From positions 1-42,506 of the forward strand of contig JAOUEV010000029.1 of assembly GCA_029858565.1 (NCBI GenBank): a stretch of 42,506 nucleotides of DNA. Direction: 5' to 3'. Source of the stretch: Nitrospirota bacterium. Lineage in GTDB: Bacteria > Nitrospirota > UBA9217. The position numbers and the translations under genes were made by a program. Shown here one piece after another: positions 128-37,741 of this stretch. Position 1 is the first letter of the stretch; each line of letters opens with the position of its first letter. The notes under the pieces were generated by a model. The model was given only the letters and a program-made list of their open reading frames with translations, was not told the origin of the DNA and did not search any database.

Positions 128-251
128 GCAAGCGATAATTCTTTCGCACAATACTTGACTAATATGGTATTATATACTTACTGAAGAGCCGGGAATGCAA
201 AACAGTTTGATTGACCGTGAGCACAATTCAAGGACGAAAAGGAGGAAACAT

Positions 252-986
252 ATGAAACGCGCAGTGCTGTTAGTCCTGGGTTTCTGGTTCTGCCTCATCC
301 CGCTTACCGTGAAAGCGCAGTCAAGCATCCCCGTCATTACCACCGATGAGCTCAAGAAGATTTACGATGCGAAAGAGGATTTCCTGCTCATCAACGCCCT
401 GAGCCACATCGAACACGCTGAAGAGAGCATCGCCGGCTCCGTCAACATCCCCTACAGCAGGCTGAAGGACGGCAAGTCAAAGCTTCCCGAGAACAAAGGC
501 AAGAAACTGGTCTTCTACTGCAAGGGGCCGAAGTGAACGAAGTCCACAAAAACGGCCGGTCTGGCCGTGAAGATGGGCTACACCAACGTGTACGTGTATA
601 ATGAAGGGCTCCCCGAATGGATCAAACGCGGCTATCCCGCGGACCTGAAGAAAGTCTACCCGCAGATCGAGGTGCCGGTGATTTCCGCAGCGGACCTCAA
701 GAGCATGATCGACAAGAAGGAGAAAATGTTCATCCTGGACATCCGGGACGAGGACGACCTCGCCGCCGGGACCATCAAAGGCGCCGTAAACATCTCCCTC
801 GAAGCGCTGGATCTCCACATCAGCGAGGTCCCCAAGGGCAGGAAGGTCGTGATCATGGACCTGCATGGAAAACAGACGAACATGGCGGGACGGTTCCTGG
901 CATCGAAGGGCTATACCGACCTGATCCGTCTGGACGGCGGGCTTGTGAGCGGCTGGATCAAGGCCGGCTACCCTGTCGAGAAGTGA
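252..986 (+). CDS. Exported tandem rhodanese-domain protein, probable selenoprotein (in-frame UGA 534-536 read as Sec95), 244 aa
   Basis: GGAGG SD before ATG252 and a signal peptide ([22 protein letters not shown]). ORFs 195-536 and 567-986 are in the same frame. Readthrough restores a complete rhodanese domain: [38 protein letters not shown]. The second rhodanese domain has Asp at the catalytic position (IMDLHG). Confidence 0.85.
552..568 (+). promoter_or_regulatory. Bacterial SECIS-like hairpin
   Basis: ACGGCC-GGTCT-GGCCGT, a 6-bp stem with a G-initiated apical loop starting 22 nt after the UGA. The loop resembles the GGUC loop of the E. coli fdhF SECIS. Confidence 0.7.
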
Positions 987-1001: not shown

Positions 1002-1031
1002 GCCCGGCGCAGGCTGTTCCCTGCGCCGGGC
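1002..1031. repeat. Perfect 12-bp intergenic hairpin without U-tract
   Basis: GCCCGGCGCAGG-ctgttc-CCTGCGCCGGGC between the rhodanese and MCP genes. Confidence 0.75.
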
Positions 1032-1059
1032 ACCCTGCTCCAAAGGAGTGACAGATTCC

Positions 1060-2589
1060 ATGTTCCTGCAGAATTTGACCATTCGGAAAAAACTTATCGT
1101 CGGTTTCGGCATCATCCTGACGCTGCTCGCGGTGGTGAGCGCGGCCGGCATCCTGGCGCTCCAGAAGATCAACAGGAACGCCGGCGCGGTGAAGAACGCG
1201 TCGTTTCCCCAGGCGCTCTTGCTGCTCGAGATCGAGGGCCTTACCCGGCAGATGGTCAACAGCATCACCGCGTCCGTGGACAGCGGCACCGGCCAGGGGC
1301 TCGAACAGGCCGCGCGGTTCAAGCAGGAGCTGGACGGGAAATGGGCTGAGGCGGCGACGGTCTTCAAGGGGAACGCGGCTGCGCTCGAACGGTTCGAGGG
1401 GCTCAAAGGACGGGCGGAAAAGACCTACCTGCAGGGCGGAAAGCTCGCCCGGATCGTCATGAACCAGGAGTGGACGGCGGTCGCCGACGCGACCAACCGG
1501 TTCAAGGACGAGCGGGAAGGCCTGGCGGCGCGCATCGGCGAGCTCAAGACCGCGGGAATCGGCGAACTGGACGCGTCCCTCACGGACATCGTATCGCTCA
1601 CCGTCCGGGCCCTGGCGCTCACCACCGTCGTGATGGTGCTCGGCATCCTGGCCGGCACCGGCCTGACGTTCTACATCGGCGCGCTGATCAACCGGCCGAT
1701 CCAAAAGCTGATGCGCGGCATCTCCTCCCTGGCTGCCGGCGACCTGTCGATCGAGATCGACGCGACCGGCAGGGACGAGATGGGGCAATTGCTTGCCGAC
1801 GTAAAACACATGGTGGAGAAGCTGAACAGCGTCGTGTCTGACGTCAAACACGCGTCCCAGACGCTTGCGTCCAGCAGCGCCCAGCTCGCGGCAGGGGCGA
1901 AACAGGTCTCCGAGGGATCAACGCGCCAGGCGTCGTCCAGCGAAGAGGCCTCGGCCGTGATCGAGGAAATGGCCGCCACGATCCAGCAGAACGCCGAGAA
2001 CGCCCGGGAGACCGAGAAGATCGCGACGAAGGCCGCCGCCGACGCGTCGGAAGGCCGGAAGTCGGTTTCCAACGCCGTGCAGGCCATGCGCCAGATCGCC
2101 GAGAAGATCTCGATCATCGGGGAGATCGCCCGGCAGACGAACCTGCTGGCACTGAACGCGGCCATCGAAGCTGCCCGGGCAGGCGAGAGCGGCAAGGGTT
2201 TTGCGGTGGTCGCCGCCGAGGTGCGCAAGCTCGCCGAACGCAGCGGTGCGGCTGCCGACGAGATCGGCGAGATCTCGTCCACGAGCGTGGAGGTCGCGGA
2301 GTTCGCCGGCGAGATGCTGGAGAAGCTCGTGCCGGACATCCAGCGGACCGCGGACCGGATCCAGGAGATCAGCGCCGCGAGCAAGGAGCAGGCCAGCGCC
2401 GCAGGGCAGATCAAGGCCGCAATCGAGGACCTGAACAACGTGGTGCAGCAGAACGCGGGCGCCGCGGAAGAGACCCATGCCACGGCCGAGGAACTGTCCT
2501 CGGAGGCGAGCTGGCTGCAGGAAACCGTGGCGTTCTTCAAGGTGCGGAAGGACAAATCGGCCGCGCTGCAGCGACCTCCTGCCCCGTGA
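1060..2589 (+). CDS. Methyl-accepting chemotaxis protein (TM, periplasmic helical sensor, TM, HAMP, MCP signal domain)
   Basis: Hairpin-tip motif [44 protein letters not shown] (GDLS...GRDEMGQL) and two TM segments. AAGGAG lies upstream of ATG1060 (GTG1048 is an alternative start). Confidence 0.95.
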
Positions 2590-2710: not shown

Positions 2711-3629
2711 CAGGTCTCTTTTGTTGCAATTCAGCCATTTCTCTGCTATCCATTCCGCATGTCCCGCCCTCTTCGCATAGAATATGCCGGTGCCGTTTAT
2801 CACGTGACATCCCCGGGTAACGAGAAGAAGCCGGTCTTTAAAGATGATCATGACCGGGAAGTATTTCTCAACACCCTCCAGCATGTAAACAAACGGTACA
2901 ACTGGATCTGCCCTGCCTACTGCCTCATGACCAACCATTACCACCTGCTTATCGAAACACCGGAAGGCAATCTGTCCCTTGGAATGCGGCAGCTCAATGG
3001 CGTTTACACGCAGCTCTTCAATAAGCATCATGGAAGGAACGGGCATCTTTATCAGGGACGCTACATGGCCATCCTGATCCAGAAGGACAGCCATCTCCTG
3101 GAAGTGTGCCGCTATGTAGTGCTGAATCCGGTGCGGGCCAGGATGGTGGAAACGCCGGACGCCTGGAAATGGTCCAGCTATCTGGCAGCGGCGGGGAAGG
3201 CACAGCCTCATTCCTGTCTTACGACGGAATGGGTACTTGGACAGTTCAGCGGCAAACGAGGAAAAGCGGAGAGCGAATATCGGCAGTTCGTCAAATGGGG
3301 GATCGGGGAGAAAACGATCCGGACCTCGGTGCGGGGGCAGGCACTCCTCGGCGAGGATGATTTTGTTGATACGCTGGCGGACCATCTCAGGAAGAAGAGG
3401 GACATCCCGGAGATTCCGCGCAGTCAGCGGTATTCAACACGGCCCGGTTTGTCAAAGCTGCTGCCCGAATCGATCAGTGCAGATCGACGAAAGTTAAAGA
3501 AGAAGTTGGTCGAAGCGGTGGAAAAAATACGGCTATCATCAAAGCCAGCTTGCGCGGCATCTTGCAGTCCACCGTTCGACGATCAGCCGTTGGCTTCAAG
3601 ATTATGAAACTGCAACAAAAGAGATCTGA
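2711..3629 (+). mobile_element. RAYT/Y1-transposase element bounded by 18-bp inverted repeats
   Basis: Left CAGGTCTCTTTTGTTGCA (2711-2728) and right TGCAACAAAAGAGATCTG (3611-3628) are inverted complements at 17/18 positions and enclose the transposase gene. Confidence 0.75.
2759..3629 (+). pseudogene. REP-associated tyrosine (HUH/Y1) transposase with frameshifted C-terminal HTH
   Basis: Motifs MSRPLRIEYAGAVYHVTS, YCLMTNHYHLL (HUH), GHLYQGRY, RYVVLNPVRA and WSSY. Removing one A from A6 at 3522-3527 restores KYGYHQSQLARHLAVHRSTISRW (HTH), ending at TGA 3627-3629. As sequenced the ORF ends at 3607. Confidence 0.75.
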
Positions 3630-3865: not shown

Positions 3866-4927
3866 ATGGCCGAGCCTCTCTTTTCGATCTATCAGCCCTT
3901 CACTGCGCGGCGGTTGCTGCGGTCGATCGCAGCGAACCTCGTCATCAACACCGTCATCGCGCTGATCATCACCGCCATCGGCGTGGGCAAGGGGTTCACC
4001 GTCACGTTCATCTTCTCCCAGTGCATCGGCTTCTCCATCTTCGGCGCAAACCTCGCCGTGTTGCCGTTCTATCGCCGGTTGCGGCGCTCCGGGTCCCAGG
4101 CTCTGCTGATCGTGACAGCGATCATCGCCGGCGCGCTTGTCGGGACCATGCTCGGGGCGCTGGCGAACGGCATCGATCCTCTGTTGTTCTTCCGGGACCG
4201 GTCCGATTATTTCCTGCAGATCCTCATATTCGCGCTGCTCTTCGGTTTCGTGATCAGCGGCATGTCGATCGCGCTTGCCCTGCTTTCCGAGGAAAAGGTC
4301 CGGCGGCTGGAGCTGGAAAAGACCGCTGTCGAGGCTGAGCTGCGGCTGCTCCAGTCCCAGATCGAGCCGCACTTCCTGTTCAACACGCTTTCGAACGTTC
4401 TCGGTCTCATCGACACGGACAAGGACCGGGCGCGCAGCATGCTCGAGTCCTTCACCTCCTTCCTGCGGGCATCGCTCGTGGCGTCCCGGGAGAAGACCGT
4501 GCCATTGGGCCAGGAAATGGATACGATCAGAAGCTACCTGGACATCTTCACCGTGCGCATGGGAACACGGCTCCGGTATCGCATCGACATTCCCGACGAT
4601 ATCCGGCAGTGCCGCGTACCGCCGCTCCTGCTCCAGCCGCTGGTCGAGAACGCGGTCAAGCACGGCCTTGAGCCGTCGGTCGGGGGCGGCGTGATCTCGA
4701 TCATTGGCGAGCGGATCCCGGGCCGGGTCCGGATCACCGTGTCCGACACGGGCATCGGTCTCCATGAGAAGAGCGCGGGGACCGGCGTGGGGCTGGAGAA
4801 CGTACGGAAACGATTGGAGCTGCTGCACGGAAGCGCAGGAACGCTGGTGCTGGAGGAGAACGAGCCGACCGGCGTGAAAGTGAGCATCCATATTCCTTAT
4901 GAAGCCAATTCGGGCGATCATAGCTGA
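3866..4927 (+). CDS. LytS/YehU-family sensor histidine kinase
   Basis: Four N-terminal TM helices, LQSQIEPHFLFNTL (His_kinase family H box), PPLLLQPLVENAVKHG, DTGIG and GVGLENVRKRL. Confidence 0.93.
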   Translation: MAEPLFSIYQPFTARRLLRSIAANLVINTVIALIITAIGVGKGFTVTFIFSQCIGFSIFGANLAVLPFYRRLRRSGSQALLIVTAIIAGALVGTMLGALANGIDPLLFFRDRSDYFLQILIFALLFGFVISGMSIALALLSEEKVRRLELEKTAVEAELRLLQSQIEPHFLFNTLSNVLGLIDTDKDRARSMLESFTSFLRASLVASREKTVPLGQEMDTIRSYLDIFTVRMGTRLRYRIDIPDDIRQCRVPPLLLQPLVENAVKHGLEPSVGGGVISIIGERIPGRVRITVSDTGIGLHEKSAGTGVGLENVRKRLELLHGSAGTLVLEENEPTGVKVSIHIPYEANSGDHS

Positions 4928-5654
4928 CGACGAGGAAACGCTTCGGGCGGCCCTGCGGCGGAAGCTGGAGGTCCAGTGGCCCGAGCTCGAGATCGTTGCC
5001 GAGGCCGGGGACGGGGAGCAGGCGCTCCGGCTGCTTACGGACCTGCGGCCGGAGATCGCGTTCCTGGACATCACGATGCCCGGTCTGTCGGGCATCGAGG
5101 TCGCACAGCAGACCGCGGGGACATCGCTCTTCGTGTTCGTCACGGCCCACGACGAATATGCTGTCGAAGCCTTTGAGAGCGAGGCGATCGACTATCTGCT
5201 CAAACCGGTGGCCGACGACCGGCTGCACAAGACGGTCGCGCGCCTGAAGACGCGGCTTGCGGCGAAGACCGTACCTGACCTGTCGGCCGTACTGGAGCGG
5301 TTGTCCCTGGCTGTGCCGAAAACGCCGGCCCATCTTCAGTGGATCAAGGCCCAGCAGAAGGACGGCGTGCGGCTCATCGCGGTGAAGGACGTCTATTTCT
5401 TCCGCTCCACGGACAAATACACCACTGTCAGGACCCGGGATGGCGAGTTCCTGATCCGGAAGCCCCTGAAGGACCTTGAACAAGAGCTCGATCCAGGGCA
5501 ATTCTGGCGGGTCCACCGCGCTGCCATCGTGAACGTCCGCATGATCTCGAAAGTCGACCGCACCATCGCGGGGATGCGCACCATCCGTTTTGTGAACCTG
5601 CCGGATACCCTGGCTGTCAGCAGGGCCTTTGCCCATCTTTTTAAGCAGATGTAA
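4899..5654 (+). CDS. LytTR-family response regulator
   Basis: Receiver motifs IADDE, FLDITMPG, FVTAH and YLLKP. LytTR motif FWRVHRAAIVN...VSR. Overlaps the kinase 3' end. Confidence 0.95.
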   Translation: MKPIRAIIADDEETLRAALRRKLEVQWPELEIVAEAGDGEQALRLLTDLRPEIAFLDITMPGLSGIEVAQQTAGTSLFVFVTAHDEYAVEAFESEAIDYLLKPVADDRLHKTVARLKTRLAAKTVPDLSAVLERLSLAVPKTPAHLQWIKAQQKDGVRLIAVKDVYFFRSTDKYTTVRTRDGEFLIRKPLKDLEQELDPGQFWRVHRAAIVNVRMISKVDRTIAGMRTIRFVNLPDTLAVSRAFAHLFKQM

Positions 5655-5949: not shown

Positions 5950-6621
5950 ATGAACATCCTCGAATTCCATGAGGTGACCAAGGACTACCGGCTCGGCGAG
6001 ACAACGGTCTCGGCTCTGCGGGGCGTTGACCTCGCTGTGGGCGAGGGCGAGTTCATTGCCGTGCTCGGCGCGTCGGGCAGCGGCAAGTCCACGCTCCTGA
6101 ACCTGGCAGGCGCCATCGACGATCCCACGACCGGCGAAGTGCGCATCAGGGACCGGGACGCCGCGGGGCTGACGGACAACGAAAAGGCCGAACTCCGGAG
6201 CCGGTCCATCGGGTTCATTTTCCAGAACTTCAACCTCCTGTCCGTGCTCACGGCGCTGGAGAACGTGATGCTGTCGCTCCAGATCCGCGGCAGCAGGACC
6301 GCGATCGCACGGCAGGAAGCGGCCCAGCGGCTGGACGAGGTGGGACTGGCGGACTATCTGCACCACCGGCCGGACAAGCTCTCGGGCGGCCAGCGCCAGC
6401 GGGTCGCGATCGCGCGGGCGCTCGTCACGAGGCCGTCCCTGATCCTGGCGGACGAGCCCACGGCCAACCTGGACCACGTGACCGCCCAGTCGATCATCGA
6501 CCTGATGAAGGAGCTGAACGAAAAGGAAGGGGTCACGTTCCTGTTCTCGACCCATGATCAGCGGCTGATCAGCGAGGTGAAGCGGGTGGTGCGGATCGAT
6601 GACGGACGGATAGCGCAGTAA
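5950..6621 (+). CDS. ABC transporter ATP-binding protein (LolD/MacB-like)
   Basis: Walker [10 protein letters not shown], signature [15 protein letters not shown], Walker B ILADEPT, STH. GGAGG SD. Confidence 0.95.
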
Positions 6622-6626
6622 CAACC

Positions 6627-6658
6627 GACGCGGAGACACGGAGACGCGAGGACGCGGG
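6627..6658 (+). repeat. 8-bp degenerate tandem repeat x4
   Basis: gacgcgga gacacgga gacgcgag gacgcggg just after the ATPase stop codon. Confidence 0.7.
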
Positions 6659-6677
6659 GAAGAGACGGGAGGCTCAA

Positions 6678-7925
6678 ATGTTCACCTGGTTCACCATATC
6701 GCTCAGGAACATCGTGAAGAACGGCAGGCGCAGCCTGGTGACCGTGCTGGCCATCGCGCTGGGCTATGCCGCGATCAACCTGTTCCAGGGCTACGTCCAC
6801 AGCACTTACGAAGGTCTCACCACCGCGGCGATCAAGGGCGAGGGGCTCGGTCATCTGACGATCTTCAAGAAGGGCTACCTGGAGCAGGGCAAGCTCCATC
6901 CGGAGAGATACCAGTTCACCCGCGACGAGGCGGAGCTCATCATACAGGTCGTGCGGAAGCAGCCGGACGTGCAGCTCGTGACCCCCCGGCTCTCGGTCTC
7001 GGGCATCATCTCGAACGGAAGGAACTCAACGATCTTCATCGCCCAGGGGCTCGTGCCCCGGGATGACAGGGAGATCCGCGGCGACATCAGGAAGATAACG
7101 ACCTTCGACGGCCGGTATCTTGCCGACAACGAGCGAAGCGGGGTGGTGATCGGGGCCGAGCTCGCCGCCATGCTGGACCTCACCGTGGGCAGCGATGCGG
7201 TGGTGCTGTCCAATACCTATACCGGCATGGCCAATGCGCTCGATGCAAAGGTCATCGGGATCTTCGACACCGGAGCGTCGGCGACCAACGACAAGATGGT
7301 GCTGATGACCTTCCGCCACGCCCAGGACCTGGTGGACTACACCGGCGCCGAGCGGCTGGTGGTGCTGCTCAGGAACGGAAAGAACGGGAACGCGTCCGCT
7401 GAGGCCGCGGCCAGGCTCGGCGCGCTGCTTGCCGCCGAGGGATTCGACGTGGAGATCAGGACCTGGAAGGACCTGTCGGTCTTCTACAGCCAGGTGAAGA
7501 ACATGTTCGACATGATCTTCCTGTTCATCTTCATCATCGTGCTCGTGATCGTGGTGATGAGCGTGGTGAACACCATGAGCATGTCGGTGATGGAGCGGAC
7601 CCGGGAGATCGGCACCCTGCGGGCGCTGGGCCTGAAACGGCGCAGCGTCAAATCCCTCTTTGCAACCGAAGGCGCGCTGCTGGGGCTCCTGGGCAGCGGC
7701 GCAGGATGTATGCTGTTCTTCGCGGTCTACGGCGCGATCGCCGCGGCCCAGCCCACCTACATTCCGCCCGGGTCGTCGAGCCCGGTGCCGCTCCGGGTGG
7801 ACCTCGTCTGGCCGGCCCTAGCCCGGAGCATTGCCTTTATGTCGCTCCTGTCGCTGCTTGCCGCCTTTGTACCTGCCCGGCGGTCAGCGCGGATGACGGT
7901 CGTGGATGCGCTGGGGCACATCTAG
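6678..7925 (+). CDS. ABC transporter permease (FtsX/LolE-like)
   Basis: N-terminal TM, large periplasmic domain, SVMERTREIGTLRALG and PARRSARMTVVDAL. Confidence 0.93.
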   Translation: MFTWFTISLRNIVKNGRRSLVTVLAIALGYAAINLFQGYVHSTYEGLTTAAIKGEGLGHLTIFKKGYLEQGKLHPERYQFTRDEAELIIQVVRKQPDVQLVTPRLSVSGIISNGRNSTIFIAQGLVPRDDREIRGDIRKITTFDGRYLADNERSGVVIGAELAAMLDLTVGSDAVVLSNTYTGMANALDAKVIGIFDTGASATNDKMVLMTFRHAQDLVDYTGAERLVVLLRNGKNGNASAEAAARLGALLAAEGFDVEIRTWKDLSVFYSQVKNMFDMIFLFIFIIVLVIVVMSVVNTMSMSVMERTREIGTLRALGLKRRSVKSLFATEGALLGLLGSGAGCMLFFAVYGAIAAAQPTYIPPGSSSPVPLRVDLVWPALARSIAFMSLLSLLAAFVPARRSARMTVVDALGHI

Positions 7926-7988
7926 AATGCGGAATGGGGAATTCGGAATGCGGAATGGAAGGCGAGAGACCCGTGACCGGGGACAAGA
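7926..7988 (+). repeat. 7-bp degenerate tandem repeats
   Basis: aatgcgg aatgggg aattcgg aatgcgg aatggaa, followed by gacccgt gaccggg gacaaga. Confidence 0.75.
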
Positions 7989-7998
7989 GGGGTGCGAT

Positions 7999-8751
7999 AT
8001 GAGAAAGGTGCTGATCATGCTGAACATGGCGTTAATTCTGCTCCCGGTTCTGCCTGCGTTTGTTCTCGCCGGTGATGTTCCGGTCAAGGAGATACTCCGC
8101 CACGCCGACCGGGCAAGGGGAAACGTGGCTGGCATCATCTGGGATATCATGATCACCTCGAACGAGGAAGGGGAGCGCGAGTCACGGGGCATGACCGTGA
8201 AGGTCAAGGGCAACGATACCCTGGCGCGCTACACCAGTCCGCCGAACTACAGCGATCGCATGGTCCTGATGCGCGACCGGAACATGTGGTTCATCCGGTC
8301 AGGGCTCAAAAAGCCGGTCTCGATCTCCCCGCGCCAGAAGCTCATGGGCGACGCGGCGAACGGGGATATCGCTTCGACGAACTACGCGGAGGATTACCAC
8401 GCGGTGCTCACGGGAGAGGAGGCGGTCAGGGGCGAGGTCTGCCATGTCCTTGACCTCAAGGCAGCGAACAAGAACGTTACCTACGACCGGATCAAGTACT
8501 GGGTCTCGAAGGAGCGGCTGGTGGGCGTGAAAGCCGAGTTCTACACCCTTTCGGGCAAACTGTTCAAGACCGCGGACTTCACCTACAGCAACAGGATCTC
8601 GATCTCCACGGGAGAGGAGATCCCCTTCCTCTCCGAACTGGTCATCCATGACGCGATCCAGAAGGACAAGGTGACCACGCTGACCTATTCGAACATCAAG
8701 GTCCGGGAGCTGCCCGACTCGACGTTCAATTTGAACGTGTTGATGAAGTAA
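7999..8751 (+). CDS. Outer-membrane lipoprotein-sorting protein (LolA-like fold)
   Basis: Signal peptide, NMWFIRSGLKKPVSISPRQKLMGDAANGDIA, YDRIKYWV, AEFYTLSGKLFKT, LPDSTFN. Lies within an ABC operon. Confidence 0.85.
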   Translation: MRKVLIMLNMALILLPVLPAFVLAGDVPVKEILRHADRARGNVAGIIWDIMITSNEEGERESRGMTVKVKGNDTLARYTSPPNYSDRMVLMRDRNMWFIRSGLKKPVSISPRQKLMGDAANGDIASTNYAEDYHAVLTGEEAVRGEVCHVLDLKAANKNVTYDRIKYWVSKERLVGVKAEFYTLSGKLFKTADFTYSNRISISTGEEIPFLSELVIHDAIQKDKVTTLTYSNIKVRELPDSTFNLNVLMK

Positions 8752-37654: not shown

Positions 37655-37741
37655 GCCGAAGTGGTGGAATTGGTAGACGCGCTGCGTTCAGGGCGCAGTG
37701 GGCTCACGCCCGTGGGGGTTCAAATCCCCCCTTCGGCACCA
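37655..37741 (+). tRNA. tRNA-Leu (anticodon CAG), CCA encoded
   Basis: Acceptor GCCGAAG/CTTCGGC+ACCA, D-loop GGAATTGGTAGAC, anticodon arm CTGCG-TTCAGGG-CGCAG, long variable arm and GGTTCAAATCC. Confidence 0.96.

Follow-up and report, generated by a model that had tools for sequence, protein, structure and literature searches.

A probable selenocysteine-containing tandem rhodanese encoded next to a chemoreceptor gene in a Nitrospirota bacterium

The locus described here raises a simple question: does an in-frame TGA end a gene, or does it encode an amino acid within one? The codon lies at positions 534-536 of a stretch of 42,506 nucleotides (nt) from a Nitrospirota bacterium (assembly GCA_029858565.1, contig JAOUEV010000029.1), called the window below. 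It parts two open reading frames (ORFs) that together would encode a tandem rhodanese. We consider it very probable that the stretch from 252 to 986 is one intact gene in which UGA534-536 is read as selenocysteine (Sec; U in motifs). This assessment draws on the pairing of Cys and TGA at the same codon in homologs, on a conserved hairpin downstream of the TGA, and on the decoding machinery and other selenoprotein genes of the same genome.

As read from the sequence, a single frame on the + strand runs from ATG252 to TGA984-986 with TGA534-536 as its sole interruption, and a table-11 ORF listing shows it as two pieces, 195/252-536 and 567-986. This agrees, in coordinates and in frame, with a preliminary description that had two same-frame ORFs parted by nothing else than this TGA. 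That description also had a read-through product of 244 amino acids (aa) with two rhodanese stretches, and both the frame and Pfam bear it out: PF00581 matches the product with 101.3 bits (gathering cut-off, 22.2) in two stretches, the best of which, residues 30-125, spans the TGA. The codon falls in the sequence F-Y-C90-K-G-P-K-U95-T-K-S98, so that its placement in the rhodanese catalytic loop, with the codons beyond it completing the domain, was correct as well. The mature protein has no Cys other than C90. For the read-through product, an AlphaFold2 model made with 29 sequences is confident across the join (predicted local distance difference test, 93.2; predicted template modeling score, 0.83) and places the loop between strand 85-89 and helix 96-107, which is the usual position of a rhodanese active site. 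In the model, residues 2-14 form a helix of low confidence that precedes the folded domain. The signal-peptide-like N terminus of the product has a counterpart in 28 of 28 aligned homologs and, together with the neighboring genes, suggests that the rhodanese is exported to the periplasm by a Sec-type (secretory) signal peptide. Domain 2 has Asp203 where domain 1 has C90, the two domains having been compared by eye, side by side, and K207-Q208 is invariant in it. Since domain 2 has no Cys, it is presumably non-catalytic, that is, inactive as a sulfurtransferase.

If the TGA encodes Sec, homologs might be expected to carry either Cys or a TGA at the same codon. The preliminary description had asked for this alignment, and Cys and nothing else was found at residue 95 of the proteins without TGA. 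A protein search returned 207 relatives, and of the best 120, which were listed, 59 have at least 200 aa and 61 are short; residue 95 is Cys in all 59 of the longer ones. Likewise, an alignment of 28 homologs has C90, G92, P93, K94, and C95 invariant (Cys at residue 95 in 28 of 28), as well as S98. At the DNA level, the loci collected numbered 35 in species genomes and 39 in metagenomes, with relatives from the phylum added; the species genomes were covered by a pattern scan of 185,579 genomes that needs near-exact peptide words and may miss diverged relatives. Among 57 distinct orthologous DNA sequences, codon 95 is TGA in 17 and TGC or TGT in 40, the latter accounting for all 40 Cys-form loci. 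Locus L094, with the loop C-M-G-P-K, is one further TGA form beyond the 17, and L049 also has TGA at codon 95. The TGA-form orthologue at L057:3001-3670 and downstream sits on a very long branch (0.9) of the tree described below and has an odd composition; by script, its frame has no stop where one was expected, perhaps owing to a frameshift at the 3' end or to faulty assembly there.

A tree of 58 distinct rows (18 Sec, 40 Cys) falls into two clades separated by a branch with 100/100 support. The clade of the window holds the 18 Sec rows, which stem from Nitrospirota- and Myxococcota-labelled records plus unlabelled metagenomes, and 3 Cys rows (L088+L089, L050) that are nested among them, implying that the state changed three times or more. 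All 37 rows of the other clade, which is labelled Desulfobulbia, are Cys. The Cys form L050 has flanks that nearly match those of the Sec form L047 and has lost the GGUCU loop of the hairpin discussed below, as would be expected when Cys replaces Sec.

Could the TGA be a mistake in this one assembly? The preliminary description had named a read error as a possible cause, and the comparison speaks otherwise: 18 or more distinct orthologs of other assemblies have a TGA at this very codon, and another study yielded a 151-base contig that matches 497-647, a span that includes the TGA, without a difference. An RNA library gave a 778-base contig, about 93% alike, that extends over 212-983; no difference is listed within 515-592, but 15 differences were not shown, and since such libraries can contain DNA the support is weak. 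Of the sequencing runs compared, X2, X3, and X5 contain only parts of the window or relatives of it (shares of 0.21, 0.13, and 0.04), and X1 may be the source of this DNA.

The hairpin ACGGCC-GGTCT-GGCCGT that had been pointed out downstream of the TGA is present (552-557, 558-562, and 563-568) and is part of the centroid fold as well as of the minimum-energy one. Selenocysteine insertion sequence (SECIS) elements lie 16-37 nt from their UGA; here the GGUCU loop begins 21 nt past the final base of the UGA, or about 24-25 nt from its U. The bacterial SECIS is described, in the passage of PMC1088965 concerned with it, as a hairpin just downstream of the UGA with a small apical loop that contains a G. 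A GGTCT loop on a stem of at least 6 base pairs (bp) is found in 15 of the 17 TGA orthologs and also in L094. Of the 40 Cys forms, by comparison, none has the GGTCT loop, and a stem of 5 bp or more is present there in L063 alone.

Pairing was counted for a 7-bp structure over 24 UGA-type sequences (17 orthologs and 7 paralogs). In this set 87.5% of the cells are paired versus 74.4% in shuffles, and covariation is 0.266 versus 0.096; none of 500 shuffles reaches either value, and all slid registers are far lower. In the 40 Cys forms, the same structure behaves like the shuffles (60.0% paired versus 60.6%, with 331 of 500 shuffles reaching the value). Related sequences may beat shuffles without any structure, a caveat against which the Cys-form control and the slid registers argue here. 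The pair 21-33 exemplifies the covariation: it is GC in 13 sequences, CG in 7, AU in 2, and GU and UA in 1 each, and it is unpaired in none. In L091 and L096, a G-C pair has become A-U through two synonymous third-position changes, from ACG to ACA (Thr) and from GCC to GCT (Ala).

Reading UGA as Sec depends on dedicated machinery, which the preliminary description had proposed to look for in the genome. All of it is there: selA (516.6 bits), a SelB winged-helix domain (84.4 bits) within a 658-aa frame adjoining selA, a tRNA-Sec (64 bits versus a gathering score of 47) whose anticodon is TCA according to ARAGORN (UCA in the RNA), and two selD genes (369.7 and 354.1 bits). The matches to SelA, SelB, tRNA-Sec, and SelD are all above the curated cut-offs. 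Each of the two selD genes contains one in-frame TGA itself, and in one of them the TGA is followed by a similar hairpin whose loop is AGGUC.

The same genome provides a control for the hairpin. A scan of the 3.9-Mb assembly found 367 hairpins in which 5 bp or more close a GGTCN loop, and 32 of them follow a TGA by 16-33 nt with the frame open on both sides. Only three of these 32 lie in coding frames that are believable, judging from the flanking translations: the rhodanese and two genes with the motif ...D-H-C-A-R-[LY]-U-H-S, which match TIGR01591 (Fdh-alpha) with 865.9 and 861.7 bits (cut-off, 666). The three genes have more than a type of loop in common. The 13-mer GGCCGGTCTGGCC (554-566) occurs in three copies when both strands of the 3.9-Mb genome are counted, against 0.37 expected from composition, and each copy stands 17-20 nt after an in-frame TGA, that of the rhodanese and those of both fdhA genes. 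The rhodanese and the fdhA SECIS therefore have an identical 13-base core, consisting of a 4-bp upper stem and the GGUCU loop, downstream of an in-frame UGA; they differ in that the loop lies 21 nt after the U of the UGA in fdhA and 24 nt after it in the rhodanese, one codon further. Because of this core, the rhodanese carries a signal that the SelB of this organism must already read at fdhA.

A 2026 review, in its passage on the recognition of selenoproteins, names a Cys/Sec pair, a bacterial SECIS, and homologs from other organisms that contain a TGA as the criteria (PMC13188914). For the present gene, a Cys/Sec pair and homologs from other organisms that contain a TGA are both found, and the hairpin has the loop position, conservation, and covariation of a SECIS. 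Several observations weigh on the other side. The folding energy of the hairpin is ordinary (z = -0.59; 53 of 200 shuffles fold as well), and Rfam at its gathering thresholds has no match in the hairpin region. Two TGA orthologs deviate from the common loop, L083/L086 with AGTTT (6 bp) and L095 with CGTGT (5 bp). The protein falls below the cut-offs of both curated models of Sec-rhodaneses, NF041203 and NF045694, and is a member of neither. Finally, the true stop of the gene is also a TGA (984-986), so that decoding of the internal one hinges wholly on the hairpin.

Public gene calls treat TGA534-536 as a true stop, which would leave either a nonsense-mutated pseudogene or two small genes, the hairpin being coincidental or a terminator of the other strand; indeed, a pattern scan lists the hairpin as terminator-like on the minus strand. 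We regard this as highly improbable. The TGA stands at the same codon in the orthologs counted above with the downstream frame intact and conserved, the break would cut domain 1 between the strand at 85-89 and the helix at 96-107, and the second piece has no ribosome site: upstream of GTG567/ATG573, where gene callers start it, nothing is comparable to the GGAGG that precedes ATG252. The hairpin covaries and is absent from the Cys forms. As a minus-strand terminator it was rejected, terminator-like sites being no more frequent than in shuffles (2 found versus a mean of 2.5), and the A-run that gives the T tail on that strand is not kept in GC-rich orthologs. Nothing was found in favor of two further readings, a TGA created by faulty assembly or sequencing and one decoded as Trp, Cys, or Gly by an altered code or near-cognate read-through; both are scarcely credible, given the same codon in independent assemblies and in the identical contig of another study, the ordinary stops (including TGA984-986) on which the gene and its neighbors end and by which TGA is not reassigned, and the Cys in all non-TGA homologs, which is a signature of Sec and a misfit for Trp or Gly.

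With UGA534-536 read as Sec, the gene would yield an exported tandem rhodanese of about 24 kDa, the codon being decoded by SelA, SelB, tRNA-Sec, and SelD in response to the hairpin with its GGUCU loop, a signal of the same type as those behind both fdhA Sec codons. C90 would be the canonical rhodanese nucleophile, and U95, five residues on, would act with it. The two might form a selenenylsulfide redox pair, or they might serve as a carrier of persulfide or perselenide.

What could such a protein do? A pointer comes from the gene that follows it, which encodes a methyl-accepting chemotaxis protein (MCP). A strict script considered the 64 loci in which the 3' end is complete and followed by 150 nt or more. 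In 59 of them it found an MCP gene directly after the rhodanese on the same strand, at a median gap of 69 nt. Of the five misses, L050, L057, and L095 have a downstream MCP hit by tblastn, and in the other two less than 200 nt of sequence is left. The periplasmic domains of the receptors of the two clades are 16% identical and align end to end by hhalign (97.1%; E value, 6.7e-11; 155 columns), in a comparison of these two profiles only. That a homologous four-helix-bundle chemoreceptor follows the rhodanese in nearly every locus (59-62 of 64) is new here, and no paper on a rhodanese-MCP pair was among the matches listed in our literature search.

Because a homologous chemoreceptor gene comes after that of the rhodanese at almost all loci, we infer a sensory role, if tentatively: the rhodanese may report the periplasmic sulfane-sulfur or redox state to the adjacent receptor. 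Going further, the Sec rhodanese might conceivably, though this is doubtful, be the sensing half of a two-gene chemosensory module, in which C90/U95 would pick up sulfane sulfur or change its redox state in the periplasm and the receptor would read the loaded or oxidized rhodanese through its four-helix-bundle domain. Some chemoreceptors do sense through a periplasmic binding protein, as sugar-binding proteins do with Tar and Trg. Here too, the gene of an exported soluble protein stands beside that of a transmembrane MCP with a periplasmic four-helix bundle, but the soluble partner would be a redox- or sulfur-active rhodanese rather than a solute-binding protein. Two points count against a sensory role. 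Its basis is limited to conserved gene order and sensor-domain homology, and the sensor domain of the receptor has no Cys in 38 of 43 sequences, which makes a direct hand-over of sulfur or selenium unlikely; coupling would need protein-protein contact. If the proposal is true, we would have a selenoprotein as a chemotaxis co-receptor, in a pair that is inherited across at least two deep clades in Sec and Cys versions. In any event, the near-invariant pairing with an MCP offers a testable idea for the function of periplasmic Sec/Cys rhodaneses.

Alternatively, the selenoprotein may be real but act as a periplasmic sulfur carrier or sulfurtransferase in respiration or detoxification, like a polysulfide-binding rhodanese, with the MCP merely co-transcribed or co-regulated and no exchange of signals between the two proteins. 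This is a genuine possibility, if short of a probable one. The fold is that of a rhodanese with the canonical catalytic Cys, the nearest solved relatives are sulfurtransferase-type rhodaneses, and C-x4-U paralogs with three rhodanese domains stand beside Cys-form orthologs in six loci, which points to a wider periplasmic set of sulfur-handling proteins. However, a respiratory reductase gene was not encountered in the conserved neighborhood; the genes that recur near the rhodanese loci are signaling genes, for the MCP, a PAS histidine kinase, and a sigma-54 regulator. Moreover, adjacency to the MCP has been kept across the two clades on either side of the 100/100 branch, in which the sensor domains are only 16% identical.

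It is rather unlikely that C90/U95 is a thiol-selenol redox center in an oxidoreductase, for instance of a periplasmic oxidant or oxyanion. In its favor, the mature protein would contain a single Cys and a single Sec, spaced five residues apart within a loop that exceeds that of the solved structure 6mxv by two residues, and TsoB joins a related rhodanese domain to a DsbD-like membrane domain, to judge by its NCBIfam name. In the Cys clade, moreover, a MauE-like gene (PF07291) follows the MCP in 28 loci. MauE-type proteins are linked to periplasmic disulfide chemistry. Yet a MauE-like gene was found neither beside any Sec-form locus nor in this genome (two queries), and no substrate is indicated.

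How does the protein relate to known Sec-rhodaneses? The rhodanese passages of the 2026 review list five forms (PMC13188914): form 1 with the motif UxxS and the exemplar WP_010941598.1, forms 2 and 4 with UxxG, form 3 (NF041203) with CxU, and form 5 (TsoB, NF045694) with UxxxxU and two Sec. A 2022 review gives the same exemplars (PMC9312934), and both credit form 1 to Kryukov & Gladyshev 2004; in the passages concerned, neither assigns a function to these proteins (PMC13188914, PMC9312934). Sec-rhodaneses are therefore an established kind already, and the present protein is a new member. It resembles form 1 in having a PF00581 domain, a single Sec, and the sequence U95-T-K-S98, which fits UxxS, the comparison being by printed motif only. 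None of the 35 loci from the scan of species genomes, with its near-exact peptide words, is filed under the name of the organism of the form 1 exemplar, and no Geobacter-named protein is among the best 120 from a protein search with the three-rhodanese paralog.

Of the curated models, NF041203 (rhodanese_LYCAU) gives the best NCBIfam match, 91.5 bits over residues 16-132 on positions 10-125 of the 126 of the profile; it too describes an N-terminally hydrophobic rhodanese, with a single domain and the Sec in the active-site loop. The match stays below the cut-off of 115, the Sec of the present protein is at C+5 and not C+2, and a Cys-free second domain is added. The orthologue L094 scores 80.6 bits on this model. 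Second-best is TsoB (NF045694), with 87 bits over residues 26-134 on profile positions 43-160. The five-residue spacing of its two Sec equals that of C90 and U95, the motifs being compared by description, but the score is far from the cut-off of 805, and the present protein lacks the DsbD-like part, has one Sec, and has Cys at the first position. No TsoB was matched in any of 201 genomes of the phylum.

Among solved structures the closest is 6mxv, a tandem rhodanese-like protein of Francisella tularensis with the same two-domain layout (E value, 6.9e-14 over residues 18-243), which is also the top Foldseek hit (E value, 1.4e-15). Identity is only 23%, the template modeling score is 0.45, and the arrangement of the domains differs. 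The HMMER alignment sets C-K-G-P-K-C-T-K-S against C-G-G-G-(2-residue gap)-F-R-S, making the loop two residues longer than in 6mxv, which has no Sec or second Cys at the position of residue 95. The earlier remark that many rhodaneses carry a second Cys here is borne out for this family and its paralogs only.

A second family of selenoproteins emerged beside the first. Its members are lipoproteins of about 440 aa with a beta-rich N-terminal part and three rhodanese domains (Table 1). Domain 1 carries F-[FY]-C-G-G-P-T-U-G-M-S, and the same GGUCU hairpin is found in 6 of 7 distinct sequences. In L051, L052, L054, L058, L067, and L080, the three-rhodanese gene lies 1.3-1.6 kb from a Cys-form orthologue of the tandem rhodanese. 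The family passed no NCBIfam cut-off. Relatives of a related kind occur in the phylum of the window, where many frames of 440-510 aa contain one TGA; at L042:1069-2634(-), for example, a frame of about 500 aa has a C-x-x-C-H haem-binding motif near its N terminus, followed by three rhodanese domains, the first with the loop Y-Y-C-A-G-M-T-U-A-M-S.

The consequences for databases can be stated directly. As the preliminary description had foreseen, gene callers split the gene in two, the public calls for the window being a piece of 94 aa (P0123) and one of 137 aa (P0036). The 61 short proteins among the best 120 hits follow the same pattern: 55 begin at the Met equivalent to M108 (54 of them with exactly 137 aa), 2 begin just past the TGA, and the remaining 4 are contig-end truncations that still bear the Cys motif. 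Short relatives of the N-terminal part terminate exactly at ...C-x-G-P-x in 52 of 55 cases. With 57 C-terminal pieces versus 59 whole Cys forms in the best 120 hits, about half of the members in the catalogs appear there as pairs of meaningless fragments; the mis-split records include NCBI-named ones, and no curated model catches them. For the three-rhodanese family, 90 of 95 listed proteins of at least 300 aa are whole Cys forms, and 25 are pieces of about 246 aa (best 120). Recognizing the internal UGA would add an exported C-x4-U Sec-rhodanese to the selenoproteomes of Nitrospirota- and Myxococcota-labelled sediment and groundwater bacteria.

Table 1. Features of the rhodanese locus and of related selenoprotein genes. 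Positions refer to the window unless a genome or locus is named.
Feature	Position	Strand	Basis or remark
Shine-Dalgarno GGAGG	241-245	+	6 nt before ATG252, from sequence
Whole gene of the probable tandem rhodanese selenoprotein, 244 residues + stop TGA984-986	252-986	+	single frame with one internal TGA; PF00581 twice; AlphaFold2 model
Signal-peptide-like N terminus, residues 1-23	252-320	+	basic segment, then a hydrophobic one ending in V-K-A
Rhodanese domain 1, about residues 28-132, bears the C-x4-U loop	333-647	+	Pfam best stretch 30-125
Loop codons C90-K-G-P-K-U95	519-536	+	homologue alignment
Probable UGA selenocysteine codon, residue 95	534-536	+	Cys/TGA pairing in 58 distinct orthologous sequences; Sec machinery in genome
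Predicted SECIS hairpin, stem 552-557/563-568, loop GGUCU 558-562	552-568	+	fold, covariation, core common to both fdhA
Rhodanese domain 2, about residues 140-244, no Cys	669-983	+	Pfam, alignment
Perfect 11-bp inverted repeat, 6-nt spacer, between rhodanese stop and MCP start	1003-1030	+	read from sequence
MCP gene (4HB_MCP_1 + HAMP + MCPsignal)	1048-2589	+	Pfam; conserved downstream partner
selD (L011)	G000:C3:2376-3290		TGA near N terminus (...G-U-A-[CA]-K...), then hairpin
selD (L012)	G000:C14:90529-91446		TGA near N terminus (...G-U-A-[CA]-K...), then hairpin
Three-rhodanese family	L051:1136-2518	+	
Three-rhodanese family	L052:1281-2753	-	
Three-rhodanese family	L054:1238-2638	-	
Three-rhodanese family	L058:1291-2613	-	
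Three-rhodanese family	L067:1375-2691	+	
Three-rhodanese family	L080:1242-2711	-	
Three-rhodanese family	L098:788-2110	-	
Three-rhodanese family	L119:666-2009	-	

Some further features of the loci deserve mention. The inverted repeat between the rhodanese and MCP genes contains a 26-base element that is unique in the genome; it was rejected as a repetitive extragenic palindromic element for that reason, and it is not called a terminator. In the all-Cys clade labelled Desulfobulbia, the MauE-like gene after the MCP lies at L054:5202-5669, L059:5285-5743, and L062:5175-5696 and in 25 further loci, and an extra gene for a protein of 300-480 aa without Pfam match is present in 17 loci. In a subclade of Sec forms (L048, L090, L092, L093, and L096), a flavin amine-oxidase-like gene (PF01593; 526 aa, at 684-2264 in L093) stands directly upstream of the rhodanese, and the MCP is longer, at 705-754 aa.

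Positions 1-127 of the window are identical to 3087-3213, which lie within an IS200-like Y1 transposase gene (PF01797) at 2759-3607 just after the MCP; a 60-base probe of this repeat has two copies in the genome. Since the first 127 positions are part of a transposase gene, the rhodanese-MCP pair has a copy on either side, and the start of the contig lies within one of them. Beyond the transposase, 3866-5654 holds genes for a histidine kinase of the LytS type (PF06580) and for a LytTR response regulator, and 5950-8751 holds an ABC/FtsX/LolA-like set. At gathering thresholds, Rfam matches the window only at 37655-37738, a tRNA gene.

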